From: a virus
Taxonomy: Duplodnaviria > Caudoviricetes
DNA length: 64,000 bases
Virus record (IMG/VR): IMGVR_UViG_3300037634_002636
Span: 1 to 64,000 of that record
Direction: 5' to 3' (one strand)
Both the position numbers and the translations under genes were made by a program. The notes beneath the pieces were generated by a model. The model worked only from the letters and a program-made list of their open reading frames with translations, was not told where the DNA came from and did no database searches. Numbering within the stretch: position 1 is the stretch's first letter; every line of letters begins with the position of its first letter. Positions 4,490 through 56,758 of this stretch are shown here, piece by piece.

Positions 4490-7400
4490 TTAAAAGTCAA
4501 AATTTGAGTTCGTATTAAGTGTGAAAATAGAAGTTAATGCTTCCATTTGTGCTGGAGTTAAATCTACATCTGTGTCACATGTTGGACATACATCATCTAA
4601 AAAGCCTGTAAACAAGTCTTGTATATCTGATAATGTCATACAAGCATTTAGATTGTGTAATAAATGTCTAATGATTATAGTCATCCATATTTGTCTTATA
4701 TCTAAAGCTCTAGTTGCTAAGGCTCCCATTATTCTAGCATAAGCTGTATTAGCTAATGCTCCAGGACATTCTACTAAATCAGATAATTCAGAATAATCTG
4801 TTACCCAAACATTTCCTAATAATGCTGGAGTAGGGACTCCTCCGTCGTTTGCGTTTACACAAGGTCCTTTTTTAGTCCATTGAGGTTGAGGCACGCCGTT
4901 ACTATCTAAACAATACCCACAATCTAATGGAACTTCACAAGGAGCTGTTGCATCTTGTATACAAAATAAAGCTCCTGAAGAATAACTTACCGCATCTGTT
5001 ACTTCTGTACAAGAATACCCATACGTAGTACCTAATTGTATTTCTTTTGTATCCCAAGATTTACTACTTAAATCTTCATTATTTGCATCTTGTAGTATCC
5101 ACGATTGAAGGTTCGCTGCACTGAACGACCCCCCAAGAATATCTCCAATAAAATAATTATTTGTTGCAGCATCTTGATTTATATATACTTCAAATGCCAT
5201 CATTGCATCGGACGTAGTACTATAAACTTCAAAAGAGATAGTATGTAAACCTCCTGGCAATGATATTGGGAATAGATTGAAATACTGATAATTAGATGTA
5301 TATGTAGTAAGTGTATTTTCATCTGCCGCCATATCAATCCAAACAATTCCATCAACTTTCATTCTCATCTTAGAGTCAGAACATAATGCTATAACTGCTG
5401 GTGTATTAAATTGAAAATTAATTTCTGTTATACATCCTATCCATTCTCCTACAGGTATAGCTGGAGGAGTTATTGGGGATCCTTGATCTAACCATATAGC
5501 TATATCTTTTACCCTATCATTAATATAACTTGTAGTTGCCAAAGTATTCCATATACCTAAATCTACTCCTATTTGGGTAATTCCAGAAGTAGACCTATAT
5601 ATATGATTAGGGCCTGTATTTGCATTAGTAATTATATCTTTTAATAAAGGCAAGTCATTAGTATTTATAACAATACTTTGAGTATAATCAACCGCAGCTC
5701 CAGTCCATACTCCATATAAACTACACCCATTCTGCTGCCATTTTGATGGTGTAATTTGTGCTGTATATAGGTTTTTAACTAATGTCCAGTATCCAGTTGT
5801 TGTATTAGGTTGAGCTGGTGAAGCAACACTAGTTACACACTCTTCTGAATCTTCGTCATAAACATATCCAATAGGACAAACACAATCACAATTCATTGCT
5901 CCATATATAGATATAACTCCAAATATCCCATTATCCATTCCTACATGTGTTGTTTGATAACATCCATGAGCATCTCTAACATAGAATATATATTCTGCAC
6001 CGAGGGCTCCATATCCTAAATCTCTAGAAACACTAACATTAGAGAATCTTATATCTAATAAACTTGTAGTAATAGCTGTCGATGAAGACACCGAATTACT
6101 TGCGCCTCCACCCCATGGAGCATAAGTCATAACTGTTGCTGTATCTAAACTTGGGCCATAATTACTAATAGGATCTCCAGTATATAAACATGGAGAAGTA
6201 GTTGTTAGAGGTCCTATACCATAACAAGGATTCATAGGAATACTAGGTGTATAGAAAGGGCCTGCTTGAGCAACAATACCTATTTCATAAGGAGCAGTAC
6301 CACCTGTTATTGTAAGTCTTATTTCTCCATTAGTATCTCCCGGTATAATATTATGACTAATTATACACGCATTAGCAACTGAAAAATCAGATACAGGTAT
6401 TAATTCTATTTTAGTTGAAGAAGATTCTGTAAATGCATTCGCTGTAGCAACTCCTAAATTAGGGTTATTATATGTAGGAATCCAACTTCCTGAAGTACTT
6501 ATTATACTTGAAGTGTTTGCATTTGCAAAACAATTATCATCGTAAGAAGATAATATATTCACATCATTTGGATCTGCAAAATACTCTACTACACATGACG
6601 ACCCATCCTTAACCCATATACTATTTATACCTCCACACATATTTGTAAATGTATGAGGACTAGTTATAGGCGTAAATGAGATACCATTATTTAATGATAC
6701 TTCTAAAGTTCCATTACCTCCATGTGCTGTAATAGTAAGAGTTCCTGTACAACACCCCGCACATTGAGGTGGAACCCAAGTAATATCATCTATATAAACT
6801 ATAGGATCATTAAGTGTTTCTGTGTCTGTATCAGTTCCTCCACAACTATCAGTTACTACTACAGTATAGATTCCTGGCCATTCAGCTGTTAAATCTTGTG
6901 TAGTTATATTACTCCATTGTGTATTTGTATTGTTATGCCCTGGTACACTACAAGTAGATGCTAAAGTAGCATATGTCCATAAATATGTATAATTAGTATT
7001 TGTATGATCTTCATATGTTCCTCTAATAGGTGTATTATCTATTTCACCATTACATACATTAGTACCAATAGAAGCTCCATAAGAACTACACCCGCAACAT
7101 GTTGGTTGTGTAGTAGCTAGTTGATTATATACATTTCTATAGTCTGAAGGTAATATTGTAGTACTAAATTCATATGAACATGCTGAAACTCCAGTTTCTA
7201 TTAATTTAACATGCCAAGTACTATTTTCAGTAAATGGTAATACTACAGCACCTCCTCCTGGATTCCATTTATCTGAATTTCCAGTTATTTCAAAATAATC
7301 AACTGTACCTGAAGCTGTTTGTGGATCATAAACTGCACTTGTTGAAGCTACTATACCTGTTCCTGTAGTAACTAAATCTGTAGTTAGGACACTTAAATTA

Positions 7401-10400
7401 ACTCCTGAATTATCTGTGGCTTGATAATAAGTTGCTCCACCATCATTACTTAACCATACTTCAAATGGAAAAGATGCTCCTACTACTGGAGTAGAATCAT
7501 CAAGCATTAATCTTATTGTTCCATCACTATCTCCTGGACATGTAGGTCCTCCATACATTCCATATGTATTATCATTAGCTGTTGATTGTGTAATAGAGTC
7601 TCCATAAGGAGTATTATATCCAGACCAAGCATATTGATTAATGTCTACCCATGCCTCTGATCCTCCTGTAGATGCTATTGTCCATGAACCTGTAGTAGTA
7701 CAAGGAGTTCCTGGCGTACTGTCTGTTACCAATACAGTGTATGTACCTACACCTAAACTAGTTAAATCTGCACTAGTCGCTGACGAACTGCCAGACCAAG
7801 CGTAAGTATAAGGACCTATACCTCCAGTTACTGTTGTATCTATAGCTCCATTACTTCCACCTGCACAACTTATTGAAGATACTACTGCTGTTAGAGTTAA
7901 AGGAGCTCCTGCAATTGTTGAAGCTGTAAGAGTTTGTGTGCAGCCATTAGCATCTTGCACAAGGCATTCATAATCATAAGTACCTCCTGGTACAGCTTGT
8001 GTAAATGAGTTTGAACTAGTTGCTGGTGCTACAAAAAGTGGATCAGCAACTCCAGAAGTTCCTGTAGTTACTGTTGTCCAATCATATGTATAAGGACCAG
8101 TACCTCCACTTGCTGAAACAGTTATACTTGCTATACCTCCAGAACATCCTGGGTTTGTAACTGCTATAGTACTTGCTAAAGTGCCTCCTCCCTCAATAGT
8201 CATTTGAACATCTCTAAATAAACATCCACATGAATTTCTTGCCCATATACGATATGTTCCAGCAGGTAAATTAAAAGTTGAACTAGATTGCCATCCTTGT
8301 ATTATATCAGGAGTAAGATCCCAAACATCAGTATTGGTCCAAGTAGAGTTTCCTACTGAGCCAAGTGTTACAGCATATTGCATACTGGCGCATGACATCG
8401 TCGTATCTACTACTAATCCACTTAAAGACCCGTTTCCACCAGAACATAGAGCATGAGTTTGGGTAGTGCTCGCATTTTTTATCATTGGACCAGGTTCGTT
8501 AATAGTTATAGAAACTGAAGTAGTACATCCAGCTGCATCAGTCATATTTATTATGTGTGTTCCAGGACTGATTGGACCGGAAGGATGGTTGCAACCAGCC
8601 TGAAATGTATTACCTGATGAAGATCCATAAGTAGCTGTCCCACCATATATAGCAACTGATGATGTATATGTAAGGCCACAAGGATTAATATGATCTATTG
8701 TAAAAAGCCCATACGCTATTCCAGTGATGTCAATATCAAATTCACCCATATTAGAAGGAGTAAGACCAGAGCAATTGGTTATATATCCAGTATTAGTAGT
8801 AGTATTATAACAATTTGTAAAATTCTCTTCTCTGTCACTACTATTACATACTGGGTGACTTGTATGAGTTACTGTTGCATTAAGAACAGTTGAAGGCATT
8901 ACTATATCAACATGGTCATAACATCCTACTAAATCAAAATCTGCCCAGACTTCATTTGCATCTACTAAATACCACCTATTAGTTAAAGTGACTCTATATG
9001 TACCACCACTTATACCTGGCATAAGGAATTCTTTATTATTTACAGTTGCCCCAGGATTATTAATGTGGTTAGCTCCAAAAATTGGTACACCAGAACCAGG
9101 AATACCAAAATTAATTACAGAAGATTTAAATGGATGGCCTGCAGAATGAAATATCCAAGTACTATTTGTTACATCCCATTCCCAGACTGTCCATTGTAAA
9201 CCACCACAATTAGATATAGTTGTTCCTGTTAAATTTGAAGCATCAAATTTACCTCGGAACCCCCCAGGAGAAGTACATGTAACGGCAGCACCTACGACAA
9301 CTGAATCAAGATTAAAAGAAATTTGCTCACAATTAGGCATGGTAAAGGAGGACGTATAAGTACCATGATTTACAGTTACGACAGTTACAGTATAAGTACC
9401 TACACCAATAAAAAAACTCCAAGTAGTTGATGCATAAATTGTCCCCAAATTTCCAGTAGGAGTGATAGGACTGGTTGTGGCAGCAGGAGAAAAGGATATA
9501 TCATCAATTTCTACTCCACTTGCATCGATATTAGTTAGTACTACATTTACAACTCCATTCCCCGTATCACATACAGGACAATCGGCAACTTGTGCAGTTA
9601 AAATAGGTTGCTGGGAGGTGTCTGGTGTTGTATTATAAACCATACCATTACCTGTACAAATAGCCCATTGATTTTTGGAATTAACAGAATGATTAGTATA
9701 TTGAGGACCTACTCCATAAGCAGATTCAAAAGTCCAATTACTATTAGTAGTATCTGGCCATATATAATTACCAGTAGAATGATCTACATATGTGCAATTA
9801 GTATTTGGAATTGAAGTATTATATTGGAATAAATTTGTTGGAGAACAAAGAACTTCTGGATGACTATCGCCGTTTGGGAAGTTAAAATAAGCAACTGTTG
9901 TTGGCGTAAAAACTGCTTTTAGTCCAATAAAATGATAAGCATATTGATTATCAACCCAACCACCATTTGCAGAAATAGTACTTAAATTACTACTAGATAT
10001 AACATTACCATGTCCTCCATATCCCATTATAGGTTTTTTGCCGTGCACATCCCCTACACATCCAGCATCATCTGTTGCATCTCCATATAAATGTTTAACC
10101 ATTCTATTTTCAAATGCACCATCAGGAAGTCCTAAATATACTCTTGCATCAAGTTCATAAAAATTTCCTTGTATAACTCCTGTGGGGCTCATTAGGTTTG
10201 GAAAAGAAGAGGTTGAACCACCGCCTCCAGTATTTGCCATGTATGAATCCCAATCTACAGTTCTTAAAGTATGAACCTTAACATCAGACCAACTAAAACC
10301 AGAAGAACCAAATATATAAGATTCCCAATCTTTAACTAATTCAGCAGAAATTGTCATACCTTGTGATTCTGATCGTATTGGGGTAGTTTGATCATCACTA

Positions 10401-12163
10401 CCTAAACCCGACTGAAAGCTGCCCATTTCCTCATATGGCGGTGCATTTTCTCCGCCATATCTATTATCTTGTATACCTGTTGCAACATCTCTAAAAACTA
10501 TTGTTTGGCCGGCACCTCCTCCTGATGTTACATGTAGATTAAAATAAGGATTATCAGTAAATAAACTAAGTTGTTCGTTTGTTTCACCTGCGGCAAACAT
10601 GGCTAATTCAGCCTGTAATTTATTATAACTTGGAGCAGCGGCTGGTGTTTTAGTGATTAGTATAGTAACATTCTTATTAGATGGTTGTAATGATGTATCA
10701 AGCCTCTGATAACAAGATTCTCTAATCATATGTTTTTGAAGGGCGCTTAATAATTCAACACCCCAAGGATTATTATAACTAGTACCGTCACCCGACCACC
10801 ACGGATCATCAAGAGTTATAAATTCACCATCCATAATACCTCCATACGCCCTGTCTTCAACCACGCCTCCTGTACCTGTCATGTGATGCATCATACCTGT
10901 ATTAGATTGAGCTAAATACCATCCTAATTCTCCAGTCTCATTTGTACAGAACGAAGTACTGTTAGATCCGTTCCACGAACTAAAGGTATATGCATTACCA
11001 CCAGAACTTGAGTATGCGCTCGATCCATAATAAGATACTGGCCATGCTGGGCCTATTATTTTTTTCCAAGCCTCACTACGCATATCCATATGAAGCTTAA
11101 ATTTATATTCATCAGATAAGACACTACCGTACGTTTGATTTGGGATTGTAGGAAATAATATAATAGCATAATAAGATAAATTCTCTGCCCTATTTTTTCC
11201 CTGTGCATCAAGATCAGGATCTGGCCATATAACATTTCCTACATCACATCCTCCACTCCCATTGTCTGGGCCATTTATTCCTATTGGAGTTGTATTTGTT
11301 GGATGTTCTTTATAAACATAACTACAATCAGTAGTAATATCTTGCATAGTCATTCCTATACCATAATAACTCTTATTATCGTTACCATCAGGTTGTATAG
11401 GAGATCCCCATAATAATGGACCCCCAGTATATTGCATCCATATAGTATCATTATAAGCACCTTTACCTTCAGCAACTACAGTAGAACCACCACCACAAGC
11501 ACCCGCATTACCCCAACCCCAAATTCCAGCAGCGAGATTACTTATACCATGTATATTTTGTGTTGAATGGGTGGAATACATCACAGGTGTTGATCCTGGG
11601 GGATTAAAAGAACTAGGCGAACATGTTGTTAAGTTTGACCCTCTTCTACATTCATAACAATGACAGCAGTGGGCCCCATTATACGAATATCCACCACAAC
11701 CTACTGGGTTAGTTGACGGACAATTGAACCCCAAATTATTTGCCAATCCTACTTCCCATCCAGATTCACAACCTATCATTGAAGTATAACCAAATTCTGG
11801 CTCACAACAAGATTGCTCTGCTAAAAAGGTAGTTGACCCATAAATAAAAGGTAAACATGAGCTAGAGGTATACGATATTTGTGAACTCCACCCAAGTGGA
11901 GATCCCAATACGCAAGACGACCCAAGAGAGCCAGATAATAAAGCGCCGGTACTTGCTTCCTCATATCCTCTAAATGAACTATGAGTACCCCATCTAAATC
12001 CTGCTGCCCATCCAGTATTCTGAACACCACAAGTCCATGTAGGTTTCTTCATATGTAAACTAAAATTATCTAGTTTAACTAATGCAAACCTTAAACCATC
12101 AAAGTCTGAGTGAAAACGATCCGTCGTTGTTTGCGACGGAGGTAGGGAAGGATTCCAAGCCAT
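4490..12163 (-). CDS. Giant Cys/Gly/Thr-rich virion adhesin-like protein with SprB-type repeats
   Basis: 2557 aa. Repeats such as SCAGGSNGAIDTTVTGGIGPYTYAW...LGVGTYTVLVTDS, GGTGPYTYDW...VQDANGC and GGTAPYEI match the Bacteroidota SprB repeat pattern. Possible PA14-like segment near the C-terminus. Confidence 0.75.
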   Translation of the reverse strand: MAWNPSLPPSQTTTDRFHSDFDGLRFALVKLDNFSLHMKKPTWTCGVQNTGWAAGFRWGTHSSFRGYEEASTGALLSGSLGSSCVLGSPLGWSSQISYTSSSCLPFIYGSTTFLAEQSCCEPEFGYTSMIGCESGWEVGLANNLGFNCPSTNPVGCGGYSYNGAHCCHCYECRRGSNLTTCSPSSFNPPGSTPVMYSTHSTQNIHGISNLAAGIWGWGNAGACGGGSTVVAEGKGAYNDTIWMQYTGGPLLWGSPIQPDGNDNKSYYGIGMTMQDITTDCSYVYKEHPTNTTPIGINGPDNGSGGCDVGNVIWPDPDLDAQGKNRAENLSYYAIILFPTIPNQTYGSVLSDEYKFKLHMDMRSEAWKKIIGPAWPVSYYGSSAYSSSGGNAYTFSSWNGSNSTSFCTNETGELGWYLAQSNTGMMHHMTGTGGVVEDRAYGGIMDGEFITLDDPWWSGDGTSYNNPWGVELLSALQKHMIRESCYQRLDTSLQPSNKNVTILITKTPAAAPSYNKLQAELAMFAAGETNEQLSLFTDNPYFNLHVTSGGGAGQTIVFRDVATGIQDNRYGGENAPPYEEMGSFQSGLGSDDQTTPIRSESQGMTISAELVKDWESYIFGSSGFSWSDVKVHTLRTVDWDSYMANTGGGGSTSSFPNLMSPTGVIQGNFYELDARVYLGLPDGAFENRMVKHLYGDATDDAGCVGDVHGKKPIMGYGGHGNVISSSNLSTISANGGWVDNQYAYHFIGLKAVFTPTTVAYFNFPNGDSHPEVLCSPTNLFQYNTSIPNTNCTYVDHSTGNYIWPDTTNSNWTFESAYGVGPQYTNHSVNSKNQWAICTGNGMVYNTTPDTSQQPILTAQVADCPVCDTGNGVVNVVLTNIDASGVEIDDISFSPAATTSPITPTGNLGTIYASTTWSFFIGVGTYTVTVVTVNHGTYTSSFTMPNCEQISFNLDSVVVGAAVTCTSPGGFRGKFDASNLTGTTISNCGGLQWTVWEWDVTNSTWIFHSAGHPFKSSVINFGIPGSGVPIFGANHINNPGATVNNKEFLMPGISGGTYRVTLTNRWYLVDANEVWADFDLVGCYDHVDIVMPSTVLNATVTHTSHPVCNSSDREENFTNCYNTTTNTGYITNCSGLTPSNMGEFDIDITGIAYGLFTIDHINPCGLTYTSSVAIYGGTATYGSSSGNTFQAGCNHPSGPISPGTHIINMTDAAGCTTSVSITINEPGPMIKNASTTQTHALCSGGNGSLSGLVVDTTMSCASMQYAVTLGSVGNSTWTNTDVWDLTPDIIQGWQSSSTFNLPAGTYRIWARNSCGCLFRDVQMTIEGGGTLASTIAVTNPGCSGGIASITVSASGGTGPYTYDWTTVTTGTSGVADPLFVAPATSSNSFTQAVPGGTYDYECLVQDANGCTQTLTASTIAGAPLTLTAVVSSISCAGGSNGAIDTTVTGGIGPYTYAWSGSSSATSADLTSLGVGTYTVLVTDSTPGTPCTTTGSWTIASTGGSEAWVDINQYAWSGYNTPYGDSITQSTANDNTYGMYGGPTCPGDSDGTIRLMLDDSTPVVGASFPFEVWLSNDGGATYYQATDNSGVNLSVLTTDLVTTGTGIVASTSAVYDPQTASGTVDYFEITGNSDKWNPGGGAVVLPFTENSTWHVKLIETGVSACSYEFSTTILPSDYRNVYNQLATTQPTCCGCSSYGASIGTNVCNGEIDNTPIRGTYEDHTNTNYTYLWTYATLASTCSVPGHNNTNTQWSNITTQDLTAEWPGIYTVVVTDSCGGTDTDTETLNDPIVYIDDITWVPPQCAGCCTGTLTITAHGGNGTLEVSLNNGISFTPITSPHTFTNMCGGINSIWVKDGSSCVVEYFADPNDVNILSSYDDNCFANANTSSIISTSGSWIPTYNNPNLGVATANAFTESSSTKIELIPVSDFSVANACIISHNIIPGDTNGEIRLTITGGTAPYEIGIVAQAGPFYTPSIPMNPCYGIGPLTTTSPCLYTGDPISNYGPSLDTATVMTYAPWGGGASNSVSSSTAITTSLLDIRFSNVSVSRDLGYGALGAEYIFYVRDAHGCYQTTHVGMDNGIFGVISIYGAMNCDCVCPIGYVYDEDSEECVTSVASPAQPNTTTGYWTLVKNLYTAQITPSKWQQNGCSLYGVWTGAAVDYTQSIVINTNDLPLLKDIITNANTGPNHIYRSTSGITQIGVDLGIWNTLATTSYINDRVKDIAIWLDQGSPITPPAIPVGEWIGCITEINFQFNTPAVIALCSDSKMRMKVDGIVWIDMAADENTLTTYTSNYQYFNLFPISLPGGLHTISFEVYSTTSDAMMAFEVYINQDAATNNYFIGDILGGSFSAANLQSWILQDANNEDLSSKSWDTKEIQLGTTYGYSCTEVTDAVSYSSGALFCIQDATAPCEVPLDCGYCLDSNGVPQPQWTKKGPCVNANDGGVPTPALLGNVWVTDYSELSDLVECPGALANTAYARIMGALATRALDIRQIWMTIIIRHLLHNLNACMTLSDIQDLFTGFLDDVCPTCDTDVDLTPAQMEALTSIFTLNTNSNFDF

Positions 12164-25617: not shown

Positions 25618-27588
25618 TTAAAATATTTGTCTATCAAAAAATTCATCAAGAGCTCTATCTTGATATAAATCTGTTACCTCAGCATTATATAATTCTCTAG
25701 TATGATACATACCGATCATTAACGCCATAACTCTATCAAAGTTTCCTTTATGATTGAATTTAGTTAATTCTTGTATTAATGCTGGGTCATAGATCTTTTG
25801 CAAATTTAGTAATTTTTTTCCATCTACGTCTACTCCTCTCAATGAATTTAACCAATCCCTTATATATATCTCACCTTGTTGTTTCCTTGCTTCTGTCATA
25901 TGCATACCATATGTCCTTCTAACACGTCTAGACTGCAATTCTTTCTTGTCTAACATTTCAAATTCTGGTTGCAATTTATGCAACTTTCTATATCTTTTTG
26001 CGTAAGCTATTATCTCTCCACGATCATTCTCAAATCCTATCTTAGCGTTATAATAATCTGCTAACATAAAAAGATTACGATTATAATCATCTTGAGTTGC
26101 AGGTCTACCTACATAAGATGCTACAATTATATCATCTGGCTGTGATAAATTATTAGGCCTCTTTAATACATATGCAGCACCTAATGATGATGAGTCAGCT
26201 GATTGATTCTGTCCGTAAGGGTCATGACATATTACATATAAATTATGCGGTGTAATATTTTCCTTATTTCTATAAGGTGATTCATATATAACTACACATC
26301 CAGTATTATTATCATCTTTCCTATGTGGAAATTTTAAAACAGGTCTTAAATCATAATCAGGTTTAAATTCTACTTGTTCTTTTTTATAATATAAGCTACC
26401 TGGAGTACCTTTAGTATGTAAGTTATTGGCTTTCAGGTTATTATAATGTTCTTGTAAAGATGCTACATCAAATAAATTAGATGTAATTTGTAAAGTAGCT
26501 TCTTGAGGGGAGAATGGGTGTTCTGCGATGTATTGATCTAATGATTTTGCATCTGCAGCACCTTTCTTCTTTTCCCTCATTTCTATTTCATATTCTATTG
26601 CTTCTTCCGCTTGTGAGTTACCATTACCATCTATAAACCCATCTAAATTCTTTTGTATTGGAATAAAATATCCGCATCTTGTTCCTAAAGCTCCAGCATC
26701 CCATTCATTTTCATAATCCATACAATCATATGCAGCTGGATTATAAAATATTTCTTCCATAGCTTCAAAATCAGCACCTTCTGTACCACCTGTACCAAAC
26801 GCTATCATCATACCTAATGTCTTTGCCCCTTGTCTCATAGTAGGCATTGTTACCTCCCATGCTTTTAATAATCCTGGAAAAGATCCTGCCTCTTCAAAGA
26901 AAACTAATTCACCTGCCTTTCCCCTTACTTTGTCTGGAGCATCCTTTAAAGATACCCCCATTATCTGAGATTTCATACCCATTTCTATTTCAATACCATT
27001 AACTTTCTTTTTATATCCAGACATTTTACTCATTTCTCTGTCCCTTAATCTAGGTTGAGCCCATGCTGTATTATCATCTATAAATGATAAAAACTCCCAC
27101 GCTTTAGATAAAAGTCCATCTCCAATTAAATATTCTTTTTGTCCTGCAAACACAAAGTTTTTTGAATTTTTAACAAAGAAATAATTACGAGCTAACATAG
27201 ATCCTGCTTTATAAGAGTATCCTTTACGCCTAGCTTTAAGCACAATCATATGCCTATTCTCTGATCTAGCTTTATCTATTTCTTGAAAGTATTCCCAATC
27301 TCCATCATAAAAAGCAGGAAAGGTTCTTTCACGTTTAGATTGAATTGTACCATCTGGTAATACCTCATCTACCGCTCTATCAATAGGACAATAATTTAAA
27401 TAAAAGTAATGAAATCCTGTAACATATAATTCATCTATTTCGTATCCATACATACACCTTTTAGCTTCTTCATCCCAAAAATCATAATAATTTTTAGTAT
27501 TAGGTAAAGCATCTGTATAATAACCATGTTCTTCAAAGAATTTGGCCGCAGGCCTTATCCTATCTATGTTTTTGAACTTTTCTGACAT
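25618..27588 (-). CDS. terL: Terminase large subunit
   Basis: Walker A KARRKGYS, Walker B LVFFEEAG, coupling motif FGTGG, RNase H-like ICHDPY and FDRVMAL. Confidence 0.92.
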   Translation of the reverse strand: MSEKFKNIDRIRPAAKFFEEHGYYTDALPNTKNYYDFWDEEAKRCMYGYEIDELYVTGFHYFYLNYCPIDRAVDEVLPDGTIQSKRERTFPAFYDGDWEYFQEIDKARSENRHMIVLKARRKGYSYKAGSMLARNYFFVKNSKNFVFAGQKEYLIGDGLLSKAWEFLSFIDDNTAWAQPRLRDREMSKMSGYKKKVNGIEIEMGMKSQIMGVSLKDAPDKVRGKAGELVFFEEAGSFPGLLKAWEVTMPTMRQGAKTLGMMIAFGTGGTEGADFEAMEEIFYNPAAYDCMDYENEWDAGALGTRCGYFIPIQKNLDGFIDGNGNSQAEEAIEYEIEMREKKKGAADAKSLDQYIAEHPFSPQEATLQITSNLFDVASLQEHYNNLKANNLHTKGTPGSLYYKKEQVEFKPDYDLRPVLKFPHRKDDNNTGCVVIYESPYRNKENITPHNLYVICHDPYGQNQSADSSSLGAAYVLKRPNNLSQPDDIIVASYVGRPATQDDYNRNLFMLADYYNAKIGFENDRGEIIAYAKRYRKLHKLQPEFEMLDKKELQSRRVRRTYGMHMTEARKQQGEIYIRDWLNSLRGVDVDGKKLLNLQKIYDPALIQELTKFNHKGNFDRVMALMIGMYHTRELYNAEVTDLYQDRALDEFFDRQIF

Positions 27589-29396: not shown

Positions 29397-29607
29397 CTAC
29401 AATCTTTATCTTAGAGTTCTTTGCTTGGTTATTATATTCAATTACATAAGGTTCTATATCCTCACGTGTACATATAAAAGATAGAAATACTTCTATTTCT
29501 TTAGACGCTGCATGTAGATTATTGCGAATTATATTAACTTTAGGATACTCCTCTTTAAGTTTAGTGAAGTCTCCTAAGCTAATAGTTACTGTTCCAATTA
29601 CTTCCAT
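29344..29607 (-). CDS. Hypothetical protein
   Basis: ORF track; coupled to neighbouring genes. Confidence 0.65.
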   Translation of the reverse strand: MEVIGTVTISLGDFTKLKEEYPKVNIIRNNLHAASKEIEVFLSFICTREDIEPYVIEYNNQAKNSKIKIVDGKAKIEFNEKINDNRK

Positions 29608-29870
29608 TAAAATGTACCTAATACTTGGAATTCTTGTATTAATAAATAATTACAGTCCTCTATAGTAGAACGAACCGCCTCTGTACGGGGATCAATTAAT
29701 ACAGTATCACCTGCTTCAACAAATTTACAGTCTGGGCCCACTTTAAGCGCCTCTAATACATTAGTTGACTGCGCTTTAGCAGCAGCTTCACCTAATATAA
29801 TACCTGATTCTGTTTTAGTTTTGGTAGGATCTGGGATAAGGATCCAGTTTCCATTTGGTGTAAATTTCAT
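29607..29870 (-). CDS. groES: Co-chaperonin GroES (Cpn10)
   Basis: FTPNGNWILI, mobile loop KTESGIIL, VGP..VEAGDTVL, YLLIQEFQVLG. Confidence 0.88.
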   Translation of the reverse strand: MKFTPNGNWILIPDPTKTKTESGIILGEAAAKAQSTNVLEALKVGPDCKFVEAGDTVLIDPRTEAVRSTIEDCNYLLIQEFQVLGTF

Positions 29871-29888: not shown

Positions 29889-29919
29889 CAAAGATATAAA
29901 CTATTTCTTTATAAACAAA
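29889..29919 (-). promoter_or_regulatory. Bacteroidota promoter (-7 TATCTTTG with upstream TTTG)
   Basis: Minus strand TATCTTTG at 29896-29889 and TTTG near 29915-29918. Confidence 0.75.
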
Positions 29920-29934
29920 TATTTTTTACAATTT

Positions 29935-30150
29935 TTATTCTTGTATCCAAGCAGAAGAATTCACTATTGCTAATATTTCCTCGTGAGTATATTGGTGTAG
30001 ACCTGTTAAAAAATTAGGAGTTTCACCTATAAATTTTAATACTGTTTTTGTTCCATCTAAAGATAATCTTAATGTATCTTGACTTATTTCTCTTACTTGA
30101 GAAAAATCAATACTTGCTATATTTGTCATATCATAAATTACATATATCAT
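29935..30150 (-). CDS. Small phage protein associated with the LamG gene
   Basis: IDFSQV...TLRLSLDGTKTVLKF...YTHEEILAI..W; coupled to the LamG gene. Confidence 0.7.
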   Translation of the reverse strand: MIYVIYDMTNIASIDFSQVREISQDTLRLSLDGTKTVLKFIGETPNFLTGLHQYTHEEILAIVNSSAWIQE

Positions 30151-30161
30151 ATCAATATTTT

Positions 30162-30908
30162 TTAAGGTACAGCTGTTGTTATATCTCCACTAACCATATT
30201 TGTCATTGTTCCGTCGTTACTGTTAGAACTGTCATCAGGTATTGTTGGGGATGTAGCACCATCACCCATTCTCCAATAACCAACCAATCCTGTATGTGAT
30301 GATAAGTCAGTTGGTGTCCCGCTATTATAAATATCTGTTACTTGTGCTGATGATAACTCTATATTAAATAACGCAACTTCATCTATGTCCCCATCTAAAT
30401 AAAACGAGTTCATTTCAGAAGAAGCAATCCTTAAAGCAGAAGTTGTGTTTTCCATTGCTGTATATGTCCCTGAAGATGTTTGGGTTTGTGTTGGGGACGA
30501 CCCATCTTTATAAATAGTTATCCCTGTCTGACTGCCACTACCATCATAAGTAAAAGTATAATAAACCCAACTTCCTGTACTAACTACATCATCCAGTTGA
30601 CATTGTATATAAGCATTAGTGCTCTGGTCATACAATCTAAATCTTAACTTATCAGTATGACCAGAAAGAATATGATACTCTTTAGTAGATGATCCTGCCT
30701 TTGCACAAAATGGCTGTTGTGATGGGTCATTTAATTTAACCCACATTGATATACTAAAAGAGCTATCTGTTGAGCCATCACCAAAAGAAAAATCATTACT
30801 ATCACCGCAGTCTATATAATCATCAACACCATCAAAGTTTATTGACTTGATATTAGAAAATCCACTAATAGCTCCACTAGTACTTAAACTTGCTCCTAAT
30901 CCTAACAT
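30162..30908 (-). CDS. LamG/concanavalin A-like virion protein
   Basis: SINFDGVDDYID, FSISMWVK, GDIDEVALFN and LVGYWRMGDG motifs; N-terminal MLGLG. Confidence 0.85.
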   Translation of the reverse strand: MLGLGASLSTSGAISGFSNIKSINFDGVDDYIDCGDSNDFSFGDGSTDSSFSISMWVKLNDPSQQPFCAKAGSSTKEYHILSGHTDKLRFRLYDQSTNAYIQCQLDDVVSTGSWVYYTFTYDGSGSQTGITIYKDGSSPTQTQTSSGTYTAMENTTSALRIASSEMNSFYLDGDIDEVALFNIELSSAQVTDIYNSGTPTDLSSHTGLVGYWRMGDGATSPTIPDDSSNSNDGTMTNMVSGDITTAVP

Positions 30909-30911
30909 TTA

Positions 30912-31199
30912 TTATTTTTTATATGCTAATACTTTACCAGCAGTTACTAAATATATAGATGTAAAATTACCATATATCGTTACTCCTTTTGGAATTATAA
31001 AGTCTGCCCCATTAGTAATATTAGTTGTACATGCTGAATGATCTATTGTAGAGTCTTCTAAAGCTGTAACCGCAAAAAACGGTCCTGCGTGCAATGCACC
31101 TACAGTTGGTATTAATACCGTTTCACTAGGTTGTATTGCTGATCTTGTATTATTTTTTACATCATTTATTAATGCCTCTTGTTCTGTTCTTATTGCCAT
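30912..31199 (-). CDS. Small beta-rich virion protein, paralog of 2342..2695
   Basis: Alignable C-terminal two-thirds. Confidence 0.7.
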   Translation of the reverse strand: MAIRTEQEALINDVKNNTRSAIQPSETVLIPTVGALHAGPFFAVTALEDSTIDHSACTTNITNGADFIIPKGVTIYGNFTSIYLVTAGKVLAYKK

Positions 31200-31231
31200 T
31201 TTTTTATTTTTTATTTTAAAAAAGATATAAT

Positions 31232-31462
31232 TATCCCCCTTTGGGATTCTTTTTCAAGTTTAGATTTCCGTTTAGCAGTGCTCCAATGGACCTAGGGATA
31301 ATAAGACCGGTGTTAATTCACCACACATACTTATGTGTACTCTACCCCAACTAAATTTTATACTTAACTCTTTTGCAACTACCGGAGAAAACTCTAATCC
31401 TTATTTAGGATCTACAATCCGATGTCTTTGCCCTTTTATGGTTACCAGGGGCTGAAATTGTT
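31232..31462 (-). ncRNA. Candidate large structured RNA (leader of the late operon or stand-alone ncRNA)
   Basis: GC-enriched intergenic island directly downstream of a TATCTTTG box, with at least 7 nested helices found by manual folding (see findings). Confidence 0.55.
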
Positions 31463-31468
31463 GCGGTG

Positions 31469-31476
31469 CAAAGATA
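31469..31476 (-). promoter_or_regulatory. Bacteroidota -7 box driving the structured RNA/late operon
   Basis: TATCTTTG(C) on the minus strand. Confidence 0.7.
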
Positions 31477-31545
31477 AAATAAAATAATTGATATAAAAAA
31501 ATAAAATGGGAAAAAAATTTTTTTAATTTGTTATTGAGTGTGTGA

Positions 31546-31589
31546 AGGTCCCCAAATGTAACCCCTATCGGGAATAGTGATTGGGACCT
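31546..31589 (+). promoter_or_regulatory. GC-rich hairpin ahead of the first early gene (candidate vRNAP promoter or terminus signal)
   Basis: AGGTCCC...GGGACCT inverted repeat at the divergent strand switch. Confidence 0.35.
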
Positions 31590-31654
31590 CCTCCCCTTCA
31601 TATTCTCAAATTTTTACATTTTGTAAAGATACAGAATAAATACATACTTAATTT

Positions 31655-32002
31655 ATGGCAACAAAATCCGTATTAGCTAAACCATTGTCTATTGACAAAA
31701 TCAGAAAGGAAATAGACAATTACATTAAAGAAGGAAGAACAACAGCCTTTGGTGGTGGAACTAAATTACCGTTAGATACGACTGATAAATCAGCGACTCT
31801 TACAGGTAACTATGAAAATATTCCTTACACTAATGCAAGTGGTGAAGATAAAGTTCTTACTCTTGCTGAGTTCAAATGTGGTACTATCTTAGATACGACT
31901 GCAGTAAACCATTCAGATACTAGATTGGTAAAAGGTACAAAAATTCTAGTTTCTGTAAAAGAAATATCAGGACAAATGCGAAACAGAATAGAATTTGTCT
32001 AA
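31655..32002 (+). CDS. Early hypothetical protein (possible OB-fold)
   Basis: ORF track; first gene of the plus-strand block, with its own terminator. Confidence 0.75.
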   Translation: MATKSVLAKPLSIDKIRKEIDNYIKEGRTTAFGGGTKLPLDTTDKSATLTGNYENIPYTNASGEDKVLTLAEFKCGTILDTTAVNHSDTRLVKGTKILVSVKEISGQMRNRIEFV

Positions 32003-52042: not shown

Positions 52043-52068
52043 AAAAGGGGCTTTTGCCCCTTTTTTTT
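52043..52068. terminator. Bidirectional terminator at the convergent strand switch
   Basis: AAAAGGGGC-TTTT-GCCCCTTTTTTTT. Confidence 0.9.
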
Positions 52069-55000
52069 ACCTTTCTATCAAACCGTATCGTTCTAATTCA
52101 TATCCCATAGATAAAAATGGTATATCTTTTCTCATTGCATCTGGAGAAGTTGCTTCTATTAAACTATTTAAATGTGTAATTACAGCAAATGGATTTTTAA
52201 GAGTTCTAGCAAGTTCAAAAGGGTCTAACCCTTGAAGTGCATCCTTTCTTAAATAAACCAATCTTTGGAATATTGCATCCTCATCATCTCCATCCATACC
52301 AGATAACGCAAATCCCATAAGGAAATATACTAAAAATTTAGAATGTATCCCTATAATATCATGTTTATCTCTTTCATTTAAATTACCCCATTTATAATTA
52401 GTGTATTGTCCGCCGAATAAACTACCAATTGTAGTTTTTAATAACAACTTAGCTCTACCTTCATGTTCCCAAGTTTTCCAATCCATAACATCCATATCAA
52501 CCATCTCACCATCAATTTCTACTTCTTGTTTAATTCTATTGCCATTTTCATCTGTAAATTCCTGAAATGCACCTAAATGTACATCATCTTTTCTAGACTC
52601 CCATTCTTGAATTAATAATGCAGGTAAATATTTTTTAAATTGCACTGCCCACACACCTACTGAAGTACTCTCTAATAACATTCTTTCATGTGATCTATAA
52701 GCACCATGTACATCAGTAGATGTTTTTAACATTCTAATTATTTCATCTTCTGTTAACTCATCAATTATAGTTTTTTTACCACTAGGTTCAATCCTTACTC
52801 CCCTTATATTTCTTTTTCCATTTTTAACTTTCATAAAAGTACCATCGTCATTATAATTGTCCCAAATAGAAGACTTATCTGGCATCTTTATTCTTCTCAT
52901 TTGTGCAGCTAAAAATAATGCATGCCCCCATTCTTCATGGATAGCATGAAAAAAGAATAATTTATCATAACTAAGCCCCTTATTCTTTAAAAACATCATA
53001 TCTGAATTATCTACAGCATAATCATAGTTATCTGGTAAATATTTAAAACGTCTTAATAAATTATGTAGTTTATTTTCAGATGGTTTATCTGTAAATGAAT
53101 TTTTAATCTGATCTGCAAAATATCCTGCAACTATTTTAGAGCCCCATATAAGATCACTTGTTGTTAAATCAATAGCACTAGGATGATAACCGGCACGCTT
53201 AGCAATACTTCCTTGAAGACCTTTCATAACAGTAAACATAGTAATAAGTAATCCGTTTACTGTACCAGCAATAACTTTAAAGAATAAAGCTTTACCCGTA
53301 GTTAAATGTTTCATTGCCATCATTATTTTAAATAAACTAATATTAAAACTTCGTCTATTAGTTAAAGTAGCTGGTTTAGTTTTATCAAAAAATGGATTTA
53401 CTATAGAGAATTGTTTAGAAGACCAATGATCTCTTCTACCCGCTGCTCTTTCTTCCATAACAGAACTAATTATAAAATTCTCCATAAAGTTTTCATAATT
53501 CTTCCACCCTTTATCATCATCCCCTTTAACCCTTTTCATTGTATTGTAAAAACTTTTTAAACCATCTCCTAAAGCTACTACAAAATCCATTTCTTGTTTA
53601 CGTATAAGATTACCAACAAAACTATAATGCATGTTTTCTAAGTTAAAAGAATGGAGCTCATCTGCTATAATACCTGAAGACCCTATATATCTAACAGGAA
53701 TATGGGCATTTATAGAATCTGTTTGTCCATAGTAATTTTCTTCAAGAAATAATGAAAAAGTCTTTGCGGCAAAATTATTAAGCACTCTTCCGGTACCTTT
53801 CCATCTTCTTGTAATAAAATTTTCATCATCATACCTTTCATAAGCTTCTCCCGTTTCCATAGGAAGCCTAGGCATAAAGTTTTTGTGTAATTTACCGTCT
53901 ACAACCGCATTATCTACATCATGCATCCCAATATGTTTAGAATAAGGAACTCCACTTTCCATTTTTTTCTCCATAAGAGCATTCCACTCTGTATTCCATG
54001 TAGTATGTAAATGTTCTAACAACTCATATTGAGCTTTAGTTATTTCTTCATTAGCTCTTTTCTTTTGGGCGTCTTCTAAGCTTATCATATATACCCCTGG
54101 AGTCTGTACACCATCCATTCTTTGTTCAAAAGCAAAACTAAAAGCATCCTTATACGAATACTTAGATAATTGACCAAAAGATAAAGCACCTATGGCTTTA
54201 GCTCCAAGATTATCAGCCATATATTCAGATTTAACGGCTGCAAATAACTTTTGTGCCTTTTGTTTCTCATCTTCTATTCTCTTTTGATATTTATTAGTAG
54301 CTTTGAAGAATATTTTTGCAAATGCTTGTATTCTAGGACTTGCTATATTATATATTGAACTAGCCCAAGTTTTAAAATTACCAAAATCTTTTTCAGAATT
54401 TAAAGATTCTTTGGAAATTTTAGTTAATTCTAGATATTCATTAGTTAATACTTGAAGTAATTCTTCGTCTTCATATATATCAGAAGACATTCCTGGAGTC
54501 TTAATTTTATTTCTTAACACTTCTATATCTTTTTCTAACCCTTGCAGTTGCTCTTCCATAGGTAAATGATCATATTTAGATAAAGCAGCGCTATTTCTAA
54601 TCTTGGTTGTAGTATAATTATCACCATTTAATAAATCTGCAGCCATCAATCTCTGATATACTTCAGGTTTTTCAGCTTGTAAATAATTACCAACAATAGT
54701 AAGATAATCTTTTAAATGTACTTCATAAGGAGCTTTAAATGGATTATTTCTTTCTAAATGCTGAACAATAACTTGTCTAAATTTTGCATCTGGCATATGC
54801 TCTTTAACCATTATAGCCCTTAAAGCTAATTCTAACATAGCTTTACTTAATTTACTATTAGAAACATTATCTAAGGTACCATTAGAATATCTCATCATTT
54901 CTGTAGTAGTTTTATCATTTAAAAAATACCCACCAGATTTCCAATCTACCATACTTAAAGTACCATCATCATGTTGAATCAAACCATCTATCTGTGTAGC

Positions 55001-56758
55001 TATACCTAATGAAGGGCTGTGAATCATTAATTCAGCTACCATTTTATCTGTAGATGTAACGCCTATTCTTCTTAATACTCCTTCTGCAACATTCCAAACC
55101 CATTGAAGTGATTGATCTGTAATTTCATCTTGATTAGACTTCTCTTTTTGTATCTCTGCTAATTCCTTTAAAATACGTTTATCTTTATTTGCACTGTATT
55201 CCATTATTTTATGAACAGCGTGACCTCTAGCTGTAGCATTATTAGACTTCTTTTGATATTTATCAACTAACTCTGGATAAGTATATTCTATTTTATCTTG
55301 TGTTAAAGTATCAGTTTCTATATTCTTTTTATTTTTTATGAACTGCCTTTTTGCTGCATATTCAGAATTAACAGTATCACTGTCTTGTCCCATAATATTG
55401 ACTTTAACAAAGTGTGTTAACCTTTGAAATATGCCTGATCTACCTTCATATTCAGATTCATCTGTAGATAATCTTACTTTTTCTGTATCTCTTGCACTTT
55501 CTAAAGTTGATATAGTATCCCCTTCAACTATTTTTTCTACAGATGGTTTCTCATCAATACTTATATCATCTTCTATAACTTGATATTGAGCATTAGCATT
55601 AAAATTAGTTGGATCAGCATCAAAATTAAAAGCAACATCATTATCAACACGTCTGATTAAACCTGGAAAGTATTTTTCATATTGATCAATAATTCTAATA
55701 TTCTTATCTAATACTTCTTTATTTATTTTAATTTCACCTGGTAAGGTATCTACAATACCATAATATCCTCGAACTTGTCCCGGTGTTACAATATTATCTT
55801 GTTGAAGACGTTTTAAGAAATTTCTTTTAGTTACTCTTCTAGGAGCATTAGTAAACTCTGATAATTCTGTTTCTAATCTAGCATCAGTTTCAACCATAAC
55901 CATAGCTAAATTTCGTAATTTTAATCCTGACAGATCTTTAGGTGTAATAACTGCATCAGAATCATATAATTTTTTTATAAGATTTCCTATTTTTTTAAGT
56001 AATTCAAATATAGCTTGGCCTAATCCTTTACCTTTTTCATCGATCATACCTGCAGCATATTCTCCTATAGCTGTTACAATAGCCTCTTTATAATATTCAT
56101 TTCCCCCTAATTTAGGATATCTATCTTTTACTTTCTTTAATATAGCACGTCCTTCAGGACTATTATGTAACTCTTGCTTCAAAGATTTAAATAAAGCAGG
56201 GTTCTGTGTAAATATAGCTTCAACCCATGGGTGTGCAAACTCATGAAAAGCAGTATCTGCTCTCATATATGCTATATTTATTATAGGAATATCAGCTACA
56301 AATTTACCAGCCCATTTCTTATCTTTTCTATTTATTACTTTAGCTTTAAATCCAAATACTCTTTCTAATCTTTCAACTATTCTTAAAGCAGCTGGTTCAC
56401 CTATTGTCTGAGCATCAGATGTTTTTTGATTCCACTTTATTTGTCTTTCTTCTAACTCTTTATCTTCTATGTCTTGTATTTTATCCTCCACATCCATTAT
56501 ACCACCAAAACGTAAAGAGTCTAGTCTAGGCTCACCGTTTAGGTCCAGATCCATTTCTCCTCGCTCATCCCCTTCATAAGTTGTAAAATCTAGCCAATCT
56601 CCAAACTTATCTATAAATTCATCAGAAAAAATTCTTTTATAAATCTCATCAGCTTTTCTTTCATCTTGAAACACATTTAATAAGCCATTAAAAAGACGAC
56701 TATTAGTTTTTTTCCCTTTATTAGGACCTCTACTTGGTATTATTAATCTACAAGCCAT
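52067..56758 (-). CDS. Large injected virion protein with zincin metallopeptidase and PD-(D/E)xK nuclease domains
   Basis: N-terminal FGDW..DLNGEP motif; HEFAH...KEAIV zincin; RGHAVHKIME..QIDGL..VDWKSG RecB/Cas4-like nuclease. Confidence 0.75.
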   Translation of the reverse strand: MACRLIIPSRGPNKGKKTNSRLFNGLLNVFQDERKADEIYKRIFSDEFIDKFGDWLDFTTYEGDERGEMDLDLNGEPRLDSLRFGGIMDVEDKIQDIEDKELEERQIKWNQKTSDAQTIGEPAALRIVERLERVFGFKAKVINRKDKKWAGKFVADIPIINIAYMRADTAFHEFAHPWVEAIFTQNPALFKSLKQELHNSPEGRAILKKVKDRYPKLGGNEYYKEAIVTAIGEYAAGMIDEKGKGLGQAIFELLKKIGNLIKKLYDSDAVITPKDLSGLKLRNLAMVMVETDARLETELSEFTNAPRRVTKRNFLKRLQQDNIVTPGQVRGYYGIVDTLPGEIKINKEVLDKNIRIIDQYEKYFPGLIRRVDNDVAFNFDADPTNFNANAQYQVIEDDISIDEKPSVEKIVEGDTISTLESARDTEKVRLSTDESEYEGRSGIFQRLTHFVKVNIMGQDSDTVNSEYAAKRQFIKNKKNIETDTLTQDKIEYTYPELVDKYQKKSNNATARGHAVHKIMEYSANKDKRILKELAEIQKEKSNQDEITDQSLQWVWNVAEGVLRRIGVTSTDKMVAELMIHSPSLGIATQIDGLIQHDDGTLSMVDWKSGGYFLNDKTTTEMMRYSNGTLDNVSNSKLSKAMLELALRAIMVKEHMPDAKFRQVIVQHLERNNPFKAPYEVHLKDYLTIVGNYLQAEKPEVYQRLMAADLLNGDNYTTTKIRNSAALSKYDHLPMEEQLQGLEKDIEVLRNKIKTPGMSSDIYEDEELLQVLTNEYLELTKISKESLNSEKDFGNFKTWASSIYNIASPRIQAFAKIFFKATNKYQKRIEDEKQKAQKLFAAVKSEYMADNLGAKAIGALSFGQLSKYSYKDAFSFAFEQRMDGVQTPGVYMISLEDAQKKRANEEITKAQYELLEHLHTTWNTEWNALMEKKMESGVPYSKHIGMHDVDNAVVDGKLHKNFMPRLPMETGEAYERYDDENFITRRWKGTGRVLNNFAAKTFSLFLEENYYGQTDSINAHIPVRYIGSSGIIADELHSFNLENMHYSFVGNLIRKQEMDFVVALGDGLKSFYNTMKRVKGDDDKGWKNYENFMENFIISSVMEERAAGRRDHWSSKQFSIVNPFFDKTKPATLTNRRSFNISLFKIMMAMKHLTTGKALFFKVIAGTVNGLLITMFTVMKGLQGSIAKRAGYHPSAIDLTTSDLIWGSKIVAGYFADQIKNSFTDKPSENKLHNLLRRFKYLPDNYDYAVDNSDMMFLKNKGLSYDKLFFFHAIHEEWGHALFLAAQMRRIKMPDKSSIWDNYNDDGTFMKVKNGKRNIRGVRIEPSGKKTIIDELTEDEIIRMLKTSTDVHGAYRSHERMLLESTSVGVWAVQFKKYLPALLIQEWESRKDDVHLGAFQEFTDENGNRIKQEVEIDGEMVDMDVMDWKTWEHEGRAKLLLKTTIGSLFGGQYTNYKWGNLNERDKHDIIGIHSKFLVYFLMGFALSGMDGDDEDAIFQRLVYLRKDALQGLDPFELARTLKNPFAVITHLNSLIEATSPDAMRKDIPFLSMGYELERYGLIER

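Follow-up and report, generated by a model that had tools for sequence, protein, structure and literature searches.

The RNA locus

This study concerns a structured RNA encoded on the minus strand between about 31218 and 31468 of a 64,000-nucleotide stretch of viral DNA, which comprises positions 1 to 64,000 of IMG/VR virus record IMGVR_UViG_3300037634_002636 (hereafter the window; coordinates refer to it unless a contig is named). The source record is a 93,080-bp viral genome, rated complete by CheckV. Its large terminase (TerL; 25618-27588, minus strand), portal and major head protein match crass-type PHROGs and identify the phage as crAss-like. The nearest classified relatives are gut Suoliviridae, with only about 40% TerL identity, and Cellulophaga phage phi14:2 and the Flavobacterium phages stand even further away. 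Marine Flavobacteriia are taken to be the hosts, and none of the cultured relatives exceeds 40% TerL identity.

The structural arm of the genome lies on the minus strand and runs leftward from about 31.2 kb, while the replication genes run rightward from 31.65 kb. The RNA is located between them, in a 455-bp divergent spacer without coding sequence that extends from an open reading frame (ORF) at 30912-31199 (minus strand) to another at 31655-32002 (plus strand). The cumulative GC skew has a local minimum at about 31.4 kb, where both arms diverge. An earlier note on this DNA had described a GC-enriched island. The enrichment is present relative to the adjoining A/T-rich sequence (GC content of 0.35-0.40 versus 0.23-0.31) but is modest, as the neighbouring genes reach 0.42.

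We are highly confident that the spacer holds a real, conserved and phage-specific gene for a structured non-coding RNA, which is not represented in the curated RNA libraries.

Conservation and covariation

The lone sequence folds no better than its dinucleotide shuffles (minimum free energy, z = +0.30 for the minus and -0.62 for the plus strand), and the case for the element therefore rests on comparative data. Loci of relatives were retrieved through the terminase (80 TerL-linked loci, TerL 70-95% identical). The spacer element is present in 52 of these, with a DNA identity of up to 88% (blastn), and among the 28 loci whose sequence reaches 5.5 kb or more beyond TerL on the upstream side, 27 contain it. 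The single TerL locus without an nhmmer match (L146) is likewise negative with the covariance model described below, and its contig may end too early. A 21-nt degenerate core motif led to at least 120 further IMG/VR viral contigs, every one of them confirmed by nhmmer. Compensatory changes maintain the fold in more than 150 related viral contigs, and the two subtypes distinguished below (types A and B) together provide more than 200 sequences.

RNAalifold predicts 46 pairs from 32 sequences, 24 of them with compensatory changes. A covariance model (R1; 251 positions and 51 pairs, built from 45 close sequences) scores the source element at 262.6 bits (31222-31468) and finds it only once in its own genome. 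Covariation was evaluated on an R1 alignment of 100 matches, 93 of them distinct, from IMG/VR crAss-like contigs. Over the 51 pairs, 95.7% of the pair cells are canonical, compared to 83.4% in shuffled alignments and 37-52% when the pairing partners are slid. Double compensatory changes occur in 30 of the 51 pairs, and 653 compensatory cells were observed where 203 are expected from the shuffles. The covariation score is 0.406, versus 0.04-0.10 with slid partners, and none of 500 shuffles reached any of the observed covariation measures. These statistics are somewhat flattering as the alignment was fitted to the model, but analyses based on MAFFT only recover the same helices.

The substitution pattern also reveals the strand. 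Read on the minus strand, the paired positions hold 566 G-U pairs and 78 A-C pairs, so the fold belongs to a minus-strand RNA rather than to its complement or to the DNA. The element is non-coding: the longest ORF starting with ATG has a median of 14 amino acids (aa) across the relatives, lengths range from 230 to 335 nt without a bias towards multiples of three, and a search for a conserved reading frame among the relatives found none. The earlier note had postulated a non-coding, multi-helix RNA on the minus strand and had suggested the collection of homologues from crAss-like genomes; the 93 homologues now gathered bear out both the strand and the conserved fold. Its alternative, conservation of a DNA origin or terminus, is disfavoured by the excess of G-U over A-C pairs.

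Anatomy of the RNA

The RNA extends from 31468 to about 31235, or to about 31218 if a 3' hairpin and the following U run are included, and accordingly measures about 235-250 nt. Its start lies a few nucleotides after the motif TATCTTTG (31469-31476), as the earlier note had correctly stated. The features are as follows, all on the minus strand; the two strands of a helix are separated by a slash.

31235-31468: RNA core of about 234 nt with domain 1, domain 2 and a 3' tail (from R1, covariation and RNA-library contigs)
31375-31464: domain 1, closed by helix P1 (covariation)
31460-31464 / 31375-31379: P1, GCAAC/GUUGC (at least 12 compensatory versions)
31449-31452 / 31430-31433: P2, GCCC/GGGC, with the capping hairpin P2a, GG-UAA-CC, at 31440-31446 (covariation)
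31418-31423 / 31381-31386: P3, AUCGGA/UCCGGU (covariation)
31396-31412: P3a, hairpin GAUCCU-AAAUA-AGGAU (5 of 5 pairs covary)
31424-31429 and 31387-31395: invariant domain-1 junctions, AAAGAC and AGAGUUUUC, respectively
31256-31370: domain 2, closed by the long-range helix P10 (covariation)
31367-31370 / 31256-31259: P10, GAGU/ACUU (covariation)
31356-31366 and 31260-31270: conserved domain-2 internal loop, UAAGUAUAAAA and CGGAAAUCUAA, with GUAUAA opposite GAAAUC
31350-31355 / 31271-31276: P5, UUUAGU/GCUAAA (covariation)
31342-31348 / 31295-31301: P6, GGGGUAG/UUAUCCC, enclosing P7 and P8 (covariation)
31323-31338: P7, CAC/GUG (covariation)
31309-31322: P8, GGUGAAUUAACACC, i.e. GGUG-AAUUAA-CACC (covariation)
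31278-31292: P9, on a GGUC/AGCA internal loop (covariation)
31218-31242: 3' end, consisting of the tail AAAGGGGGA (31234-31242), a weak hairpin GAUAAUUAUAUC (31224-31235) and a run of six U (31218-31223)

The closing helices of both domains display many compensatory versions. P1 occurs as GCAAC/GUUGC, GUAAC/GUUAC, GCAAU/AUUGC, UCCAAU/AUUGGA, UGUGGU/ACCACA, GAAGC/GCUUC, GAGGC/GCCUC, GAGAC/GUCUC and others, and P10 as GAGU/ACUU, GAAC/GUUU, GAGC/GCUU and GAAUU/AAUUU. In domain 1, helices 1, 2, 4 and 5 of the covariation analysis show double changes in 5 of 5, 3 of 4, 2 of 6 and 5 of 5 pairs, respectively, and the P3a loop AAAUA(A/G) is nearly invariant. Additional elements, either a hairpin with a GNRA cap behind P1 or a long insert within P3, bring the RNA to as much as 335 nt in some relatives; GNRA tetraloops at P1a and P2a are found in some subgroups. 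In domain 2, P9 branches off where P5 and P6 meet, on the stretch that leads from P6 to the 3' strand of P5; its GGUC/AGCA internal loop is invariant. A local hairpin (P4, AGAGU/GCUCU) that competes with P10 is poorly supported and was dropped in favour of the latter.

The tail ends in an invariant AAGGGGG (31235-31241). The hairpin and U run behind it possibly represent a weak terminator or a processing site, and a run of at least four T within 45 nt is found in 47 of the 106 distinct relatives. A pairwise-covariation search for pseudoknots returned only single-pair hints (columns 250-446 and 437-445), which are swamped by G/U-rich columns and by subgroup structure. Complementarity of the conserved loops to the phage genome is found mostly at the own locus, besides a few isolated 9-nt matches.

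Nine helices had been proposed in the earlier note, of which seven are right and covary (P2 with P2a, P3, P3a, P5, P6, P7 and P8). The remaining two find no support: the GAG-UUUU-CUC hairpin is invariant and clashes with two inner pairs of P3, and in the terminal AUCCC/GGGAU hairpin the 5' arm varies without matching changes in the invariant GGGGG, with RNAalifold predicting no such hairpin. P1, P9 and the long-range P10 were absent from that model.

A second subtype

Starting from two weak R1 matches (L148 and L155), we identified a variant motif that a further 43 viral contigs carry (L298-L340); this subtype is referred to as type B. R1 recognises all 43 of them, at 27-64 bits. Examples are found at

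L305, 8756-8991: type B element
L148, 3651-3880: type B element
L155, 2177-2426: type B element

Type B retains the P2/P3 region of domain 1, the internal loop as GAUAUAA/GAAA, P5 and the tail CAAGGGGAUAACUAU. The sequence AAGGGG(G)AUAACUAU is kept in both subtypes. P10 has 6 bp in type B and covaries richly. The interior formed by P6 to P9 is replaced by a covarying GUGGG/CCCAC helix around an invariant ACUAUAGGCUGANAGAAAUGU, which is followed by AGGCUAAANACGG. We did not recognise this domain-2 module as any known motif. From the sequence comparison, the exchange suggests that the functional core likely comprises the 3' tail and domain 1 together with P10 and the adjoining internal loop, whereas the interior of domain 2 would be exchangeable.

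Relation to known RNA families

The RNA matches no known family and looks like a new phage RNA. Rfam 15 (4227 models) gave no match at gathering thresholds in the whole window, and the E-value mode applied to 30900-31800 returned two chance-level matches outside the RNA (RUF1 and srg1; 14-15 bits versus 70). ARAGORN found neither transfer RNA (tRNA) nor transfer-messenger RNA (tmRNA), be it in the window or across all 93,080 bp of the genome. A blastn comparison of the intergenic region with 50,697 phage records gave no match. The exclusion of tRNA, tmRNA, RNase P, signal recognition particle (SRP) RNA and group I introns by the earlier note is in agreement with these results, as is its description of a new structured phage RNA at the head of the late, structural arm, which conforms to the position, the covariation and the lack of an ORF.

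Several classes were considered individually and rejected. A group I intron, which would interrupt a host gene between flanking exons and have a P3-P8/P7 core, is incompatible with the intergenic position behind an own promoter and with the lack of an Intron_gpI match. 6S RNA forms a long rod that is largely double-stranded, with a bubble at its centre resembling an open promoter, whereas the present consensus fold has two multi-branch domains, and neither 6S, 6S-Flavo nor Bacteroidales-1 models match. A guide of the omega-RNA/HEARO type needs an adjacent ORF for a RuvC/HNH nuclease. No nuclease or transposase ORF adjoins the RNA; the flanking ORFs have 71-248 aa and only GroES-like and LamG matches. 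A reverse transcriptase (PF00078), as retron, DRT and UG27 systems demand, was found nowhere in the genome, with working positive controls; a search of the genome for bS21 was negative as well. For SRP RNA there is a motif-level resemblance only, to its symmetric-loop region: P9 reads NGGUCC-loop-GGAGCAC with invariant GGU and AGCA, and E. coli 4.5S RNA has the segment AGGUCC-GGAA-GGAAGCAG. In contrast to SRP domain IV, the apical loop of P9 varies in length and sequence and is not a GNAR tetraloop, its 3' side is one A shorter, an asymmetric loop is lacking, and SRP models do not match.

The family appears restricted to phages. R1 had no match in five cultured or gut Crassvirales or crass-like genomes (cr114_1, cr10_1, Flavobacterium phage Fpv1, phi14:2 and Carjivirus communis), nor in 151 sampled Flavobacteriales genomes. 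In these samples an origin from host RNA finds no support, and all 15 pattern matches among 185,579 species genomes fail nhmmer and are chance matches. Full-text literature searches found no earlier description; the RNA may nevertheless already figure in an inventory of candidate structured RNAs from IMG/VR that was published in 2023 and has about 10,000 unnamed entries (PMC10690425).

Among the systems of known or partly known biology, the large RNAs GOLLD, ROOL, HEARO/omega-RNA and OLE share with the present RNA complex folds supported by covariation, discovery by comparison, often in phages or metagenomes, and a role that was initially unknown. The present RNA is smaller (about 250 versus about 300-800 nt) and has neither neighbouring tRNAs nor an adjacent nuclease or transposase ORF. 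The pRNA of phage phi29 is likewise a structured phage RNA (about 170-250 nt) with its own promoter, and the invariant P8 loop AAUUAA contains a 4-nt palindrome, so that loop-loop contacts are conceivable as a parallel. However, the Rfam pRNA model does not match, the phage family is different and has classical TerL packaging, and nothing in the present data connects the RNA with the portal. The put RNAs of phage HK022 and the EAR leaders, which are about 70 and 120 nt long with two or three stem-loops, resemble our RNA in being structured and located at the very start of a long transcript, from where they exert their effect on RNA polymerase in cis. The latter differs from both in its 235-335 nt, about 11 helices and two domains, in the new promoter that follows it in most relatives, and in sequence and structure.

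The transcription of phi14:2 offers a further comparison. Its middle and late genes are transcribed by the host RNA polymerase (RNAP), and its intergenic long non-coding RNAs (lncRNAs) at the g004-g006 junctions, the function of which is unknown, exceed most mRNAs in abundance (Drobysheva et al., bioRxiv 10.1101/2020.03.07.982082). They were seen at the earliest time sampled, when the early transcripts of the virion RNAP predominate (bioRxiv 10.1101/2020.03.07.982082). They share with the present RNA the lack of coding sequence and the origin in a marine crAss-like phage that infects Flavobacteriia, but they derive from the early, rightward arm and from a non-coding stretch of about 1.7 kb, whereas the present RNA lies behind a sigma-A-type box. 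R1 with filters off reaches at best 9 bits in the phi14:2 lncRNA region, which is noise. The g004-g006 interval (L341, 2905-4601) comprises about 1.7 kb without annotated coding sequence (CDS), its CDS features having been withdrawn in 2020, and matches the published lncRNA region.

Promoters and transcription unit

The following features, all on the minus strand, accompany the RNA.

31469-31505: promoter of the RNA, with the -7 box TATCTTTG (31469-31476) and an upstream T-rich, -33-like element (from position and conservation)
29935-31199: insertion of three genes (95, 248 and 71 aa) between the RNA and the groES promoter
29889-29925: promoter of the groES-like gene, TTTG-N-TATATCTTTG (same promoter and leader as in the relatives)
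29607-29870: groES-like gene, the ancestral neighbour of the RNA

A full match to the -33/-7 pattern ends at 31469. The box is of the Bacteroidetes sigma-A type TAnnTTTG, and P1 begins 4-5 nt downstream of it, approximately at the predicted +1. Of 85 typed relatives, 82 have a T[AT]nnTTT[GA] box immediately before P1. On the structural arm the RNA invariably comes first in the order of transcription: the genes upstream are divergent, or a variable small ORF precedes it, and the flanking small ORFs differ from genome to genome.

In most relatives the groES-like ORF comes directly after the RNA. A second TAnnTTTG promoter, which serves this gene, is located 50-75 nt past the G run in 64 of the 106 relatives, and 52 of these 64 include the -33 TTTG element. 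In the source genome the groES promoter is found 1.3 kb downstream of the RNA, displaced by the three-gene insertion. Given the separate groES promoter in about 60% of the relatives, the RNA constitutes its own transcription unit and is not an obligatory leader.

Occurrence in RNA libraries

A k-mer index places the sequence in marine metagenomes and in three marine metatranscriptome runs from three studies. The aligning Logan contigs measure 215 nt (31237-31450), 248 nt (about 31236-31470) and 151 nt; they derive from relatives of about 90% identity and consist wholly of the RNA. Two of them, which come from separate studies, stop inside the invariant G run (31235-31239), although the conservation extends further. 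That the contigs hold the RNA only is a weak hint at a discrete species, with carry-over of DNA as a possible source. The flanking genes are not covered, to which we attach no weight, as the runs were found via the conserved RNA and the flanks of relatives would not align.

Function of the RNA

We favour the interpretation of the locus as a stand-alone gene for a stable non-coding RNA of complex fold, maintained in an extensive clade of crAss-like phages from the environment, chiefly from the sea. The promoter type and the published result for phi14:2 point to the host RNAP as the enzyme that would transcribe it. The RNA may accumulate as a discrete species of about 235-250 nt and act in trans via its invariant unpaired segments (AGACAU, AAAUA, UUUUCUCC, GUAUAA, GAAAUC, AGCAC and AAGGGGGA), by which it would engage a host or phage factor during infection, either as the core of a ribonucleoprotein (RNP) or as an RNA-only machine. 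To a stable trans-acting RNA of this kind we give an even chance. A more far-reaching proposal, which we make only tentatively, is that of a new class of complex-fold phage RNA, of a kind with GOLLD, ROOL or HEARO when these were discovered. It would be produced abundantly by a common clade of oceanic crAss-like phages, serve as a ribozyme or as an RNP or RNA-only core, and commandeer a host process. In one possible version, the invariant Shine-Dalgarno-like AAGGGGG tail at the apparent 3' terminus would engage the anti-Shine-Dalgarno sequence at the end of 16S rRNA, a segment that Bacteroidetes ribosomes normally keep sequestered, and the invariant P8 loop or the GGUC/AGCA loop would bind a protein or a second copy of the RNA.

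Several points weigh against a stable trans-acting RNA, the role of which we infer. TAnnTTTG occurs across the genome at about the rate expected by chance, and it is by its position and conservation that we recognise the promoter. The RNA-library contigs give neither strand, level nor true ends. A strong intrinsic terminator is lacking, with a weak hairpin and a U run in fewer than half of the relatives, so read-through is likely. A large share of the transcripts probably extends into the structural genes, for which the RNA would then also be a leader, and in the source genome and a few relatives (L117, L210 and L183) the following ORF has no new promoter.

The last two points at the same time speak for a cis leader, in which the nascent RNA would modify its own polymerase by antitermination of the put or EAR kind, or would otherwise govern the amount of transcription that passes from the head promoter into the structural arm of more than 31 kb. 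The RNA is indeed always first on the co-directional structural arm and starts at the promoter +1, as expected of the processive antiterminator suggested by the earlier note. An uninterrupted link to the operon, as put and EAR RNAs have, is lacking in those 64 of 106 relatives in which a full promoter separates the RNA from the next gene; most downstream transcription need not run through the RNA, and this makes an antiterminator in cis less likely. In addition, the genome encodes no recognisable NusG-like protein, the RNA exceeds put or EAR 3-4 times in size and is much more complex, and, as a weak argument, the RNA-library contigs hold the RNA alone. We regard a cis leader as rather unlikely. 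A riboswitch-like sensor governing the gene immediately downstream would agree with the three-way-junction domains and with the two mutually exclusive partners of AGAGU (P4 and P10). The support for P4 is poor, however, Rfam riboswitch models do not match, and the downstream gene is not conserved (95-aa, 268-aa and 409-aa ORFs, the groES-like gene and others) and mostly has its own promoter, which renders such a sensor highly improbable.

A ribozyme or self-processing RNA, which might cleave at its own 3' end near GGGGG and thereby be released from read-through transcripts, or act on another RNA, is suggested by the large, junction-rich fold with many invariant unpaired nucleotides, by the GNRA tetraloops of some subgroups and by the two RNA-library contigs that end within the G run. 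Contig ends are not RNA ends, though, the RNA is unlike any ribozyme family in Rfam, and neither covariation at a cleavage site nor a conserved catalytic motif was recognised; we consider this explanation unlikely, while noting that the readings are not fully exclusive, because a released ribozyme would also count as trans-acting. The position where the replication and structural arms part, at the GC-skew minimum, together with an invariant G run at what seems to be the 3' end, would fit a replication-origin transcript that forms a persistent RNA-DNA hybrid, e.g. at the G run, and primes or activates replication in the manner of ColE1 RNA II. The change of gene orientation explains the skew switch equally well, nothing found connects the fold with replication, and conserved loops and an exchangeable domain 2 are unexpected in a mere primer, so this alternative appears very unlikely. 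Hardly credible, finally, is an element acting at the DNA level, such as an origin, a pac site or terminus or an array of protein-binding sites. The intergenic position at the switch region is conserved, as such an element would require, but pairing is maintained with G-U tolerated on the minus strand only, a promoter lies immediately in front, and the sequence occurs in RNA libraries.

Crassvirales are among the most abundant phages of Bacteroidota, and to our knowledge their RNA biology is almost unexplored. The present RNA offers an object for such work, being about 250 nt long, with more than 150 natural variants and a fixed address at the early/late switch, and its two architectural subtypes delimit the likely functional core. 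If it proves to be a ribozyme, an RNP scaffold or a modifier of polymerase or ribosome, it would represent a new class of functional RNA, and with it a handle on the late programme that crAss-like phages run with the host polymerase. With R1 the family can be annotated in viromes, and in marine metatranscriptomes the RNA may serve as a marker of active infection.

Neighbouring genes and other features of the genome

Of the proteins encoded in the three-gene insertion, the one of 248 aa is LamG/ConA-like (Pfam Laminin_G_3); the 95-aa ORF belongs to no family, and a search for relatives of it remained empty. We found no promoter belonging to the insertion itself, so it is probably read from the RNA promoter. 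Other relatives carry genes of 268 aa, 409 aa or 122+178 aa at the same site. This suggests that the site just after the RNA is a hot spot for accessory (moron) genes expressed from the RNA promoter. The LamG-like domain also occurs in other marine viral contigs (L005-L010, e.g. L005:2536-3708), there fused to a more extended N-terminal part (370-398 aa) and with the genes in another order. The domain is thus mobile and not a marker of synteny. Loci retrieved through LamG were rejected as relatives, being neither syntenic nor in possession of the element; an origin of the RNA region as a pseudogene was dismissed as well, as it has no tblastn similarity to the upstream ORFs of these loci.

Upstream of the RNA, two kinds of small ORF were observed in a set of relatives (L154, L228, L215 and L239). 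In some of them a Cys-rich ORF ending in ...DCENCGS stops right before P1, without a promoter box in between, and in others a hydrophobic ORF of 73-74 aa (MESVFKYATSFFKGM...) is found. Judging from this arrangement, the RNA of these relatives would be co-transcribed with the preceding ORF and would need processing.

In the source genome, the divergent spacer contains a GC-rich inverted repeat, GGAGGUCCC ... GGGGACCUU, at 31546-31610, between the RNA promoter and the first plus-strand gene. Its folding is better than that of shuffles on both strands (z of -2.45 and -3.05), and it might act as a terminator in both directions, be bound by a protein or form the hairpin of an early promoter. Elsewhere in the window, three very large minus-strand ORFs are located at 4490-12163, 52067-56758 and 56758-63891 (2557, 1563 and 2377 aa, respectively), one of which is probably the crass-type virion RNAP.

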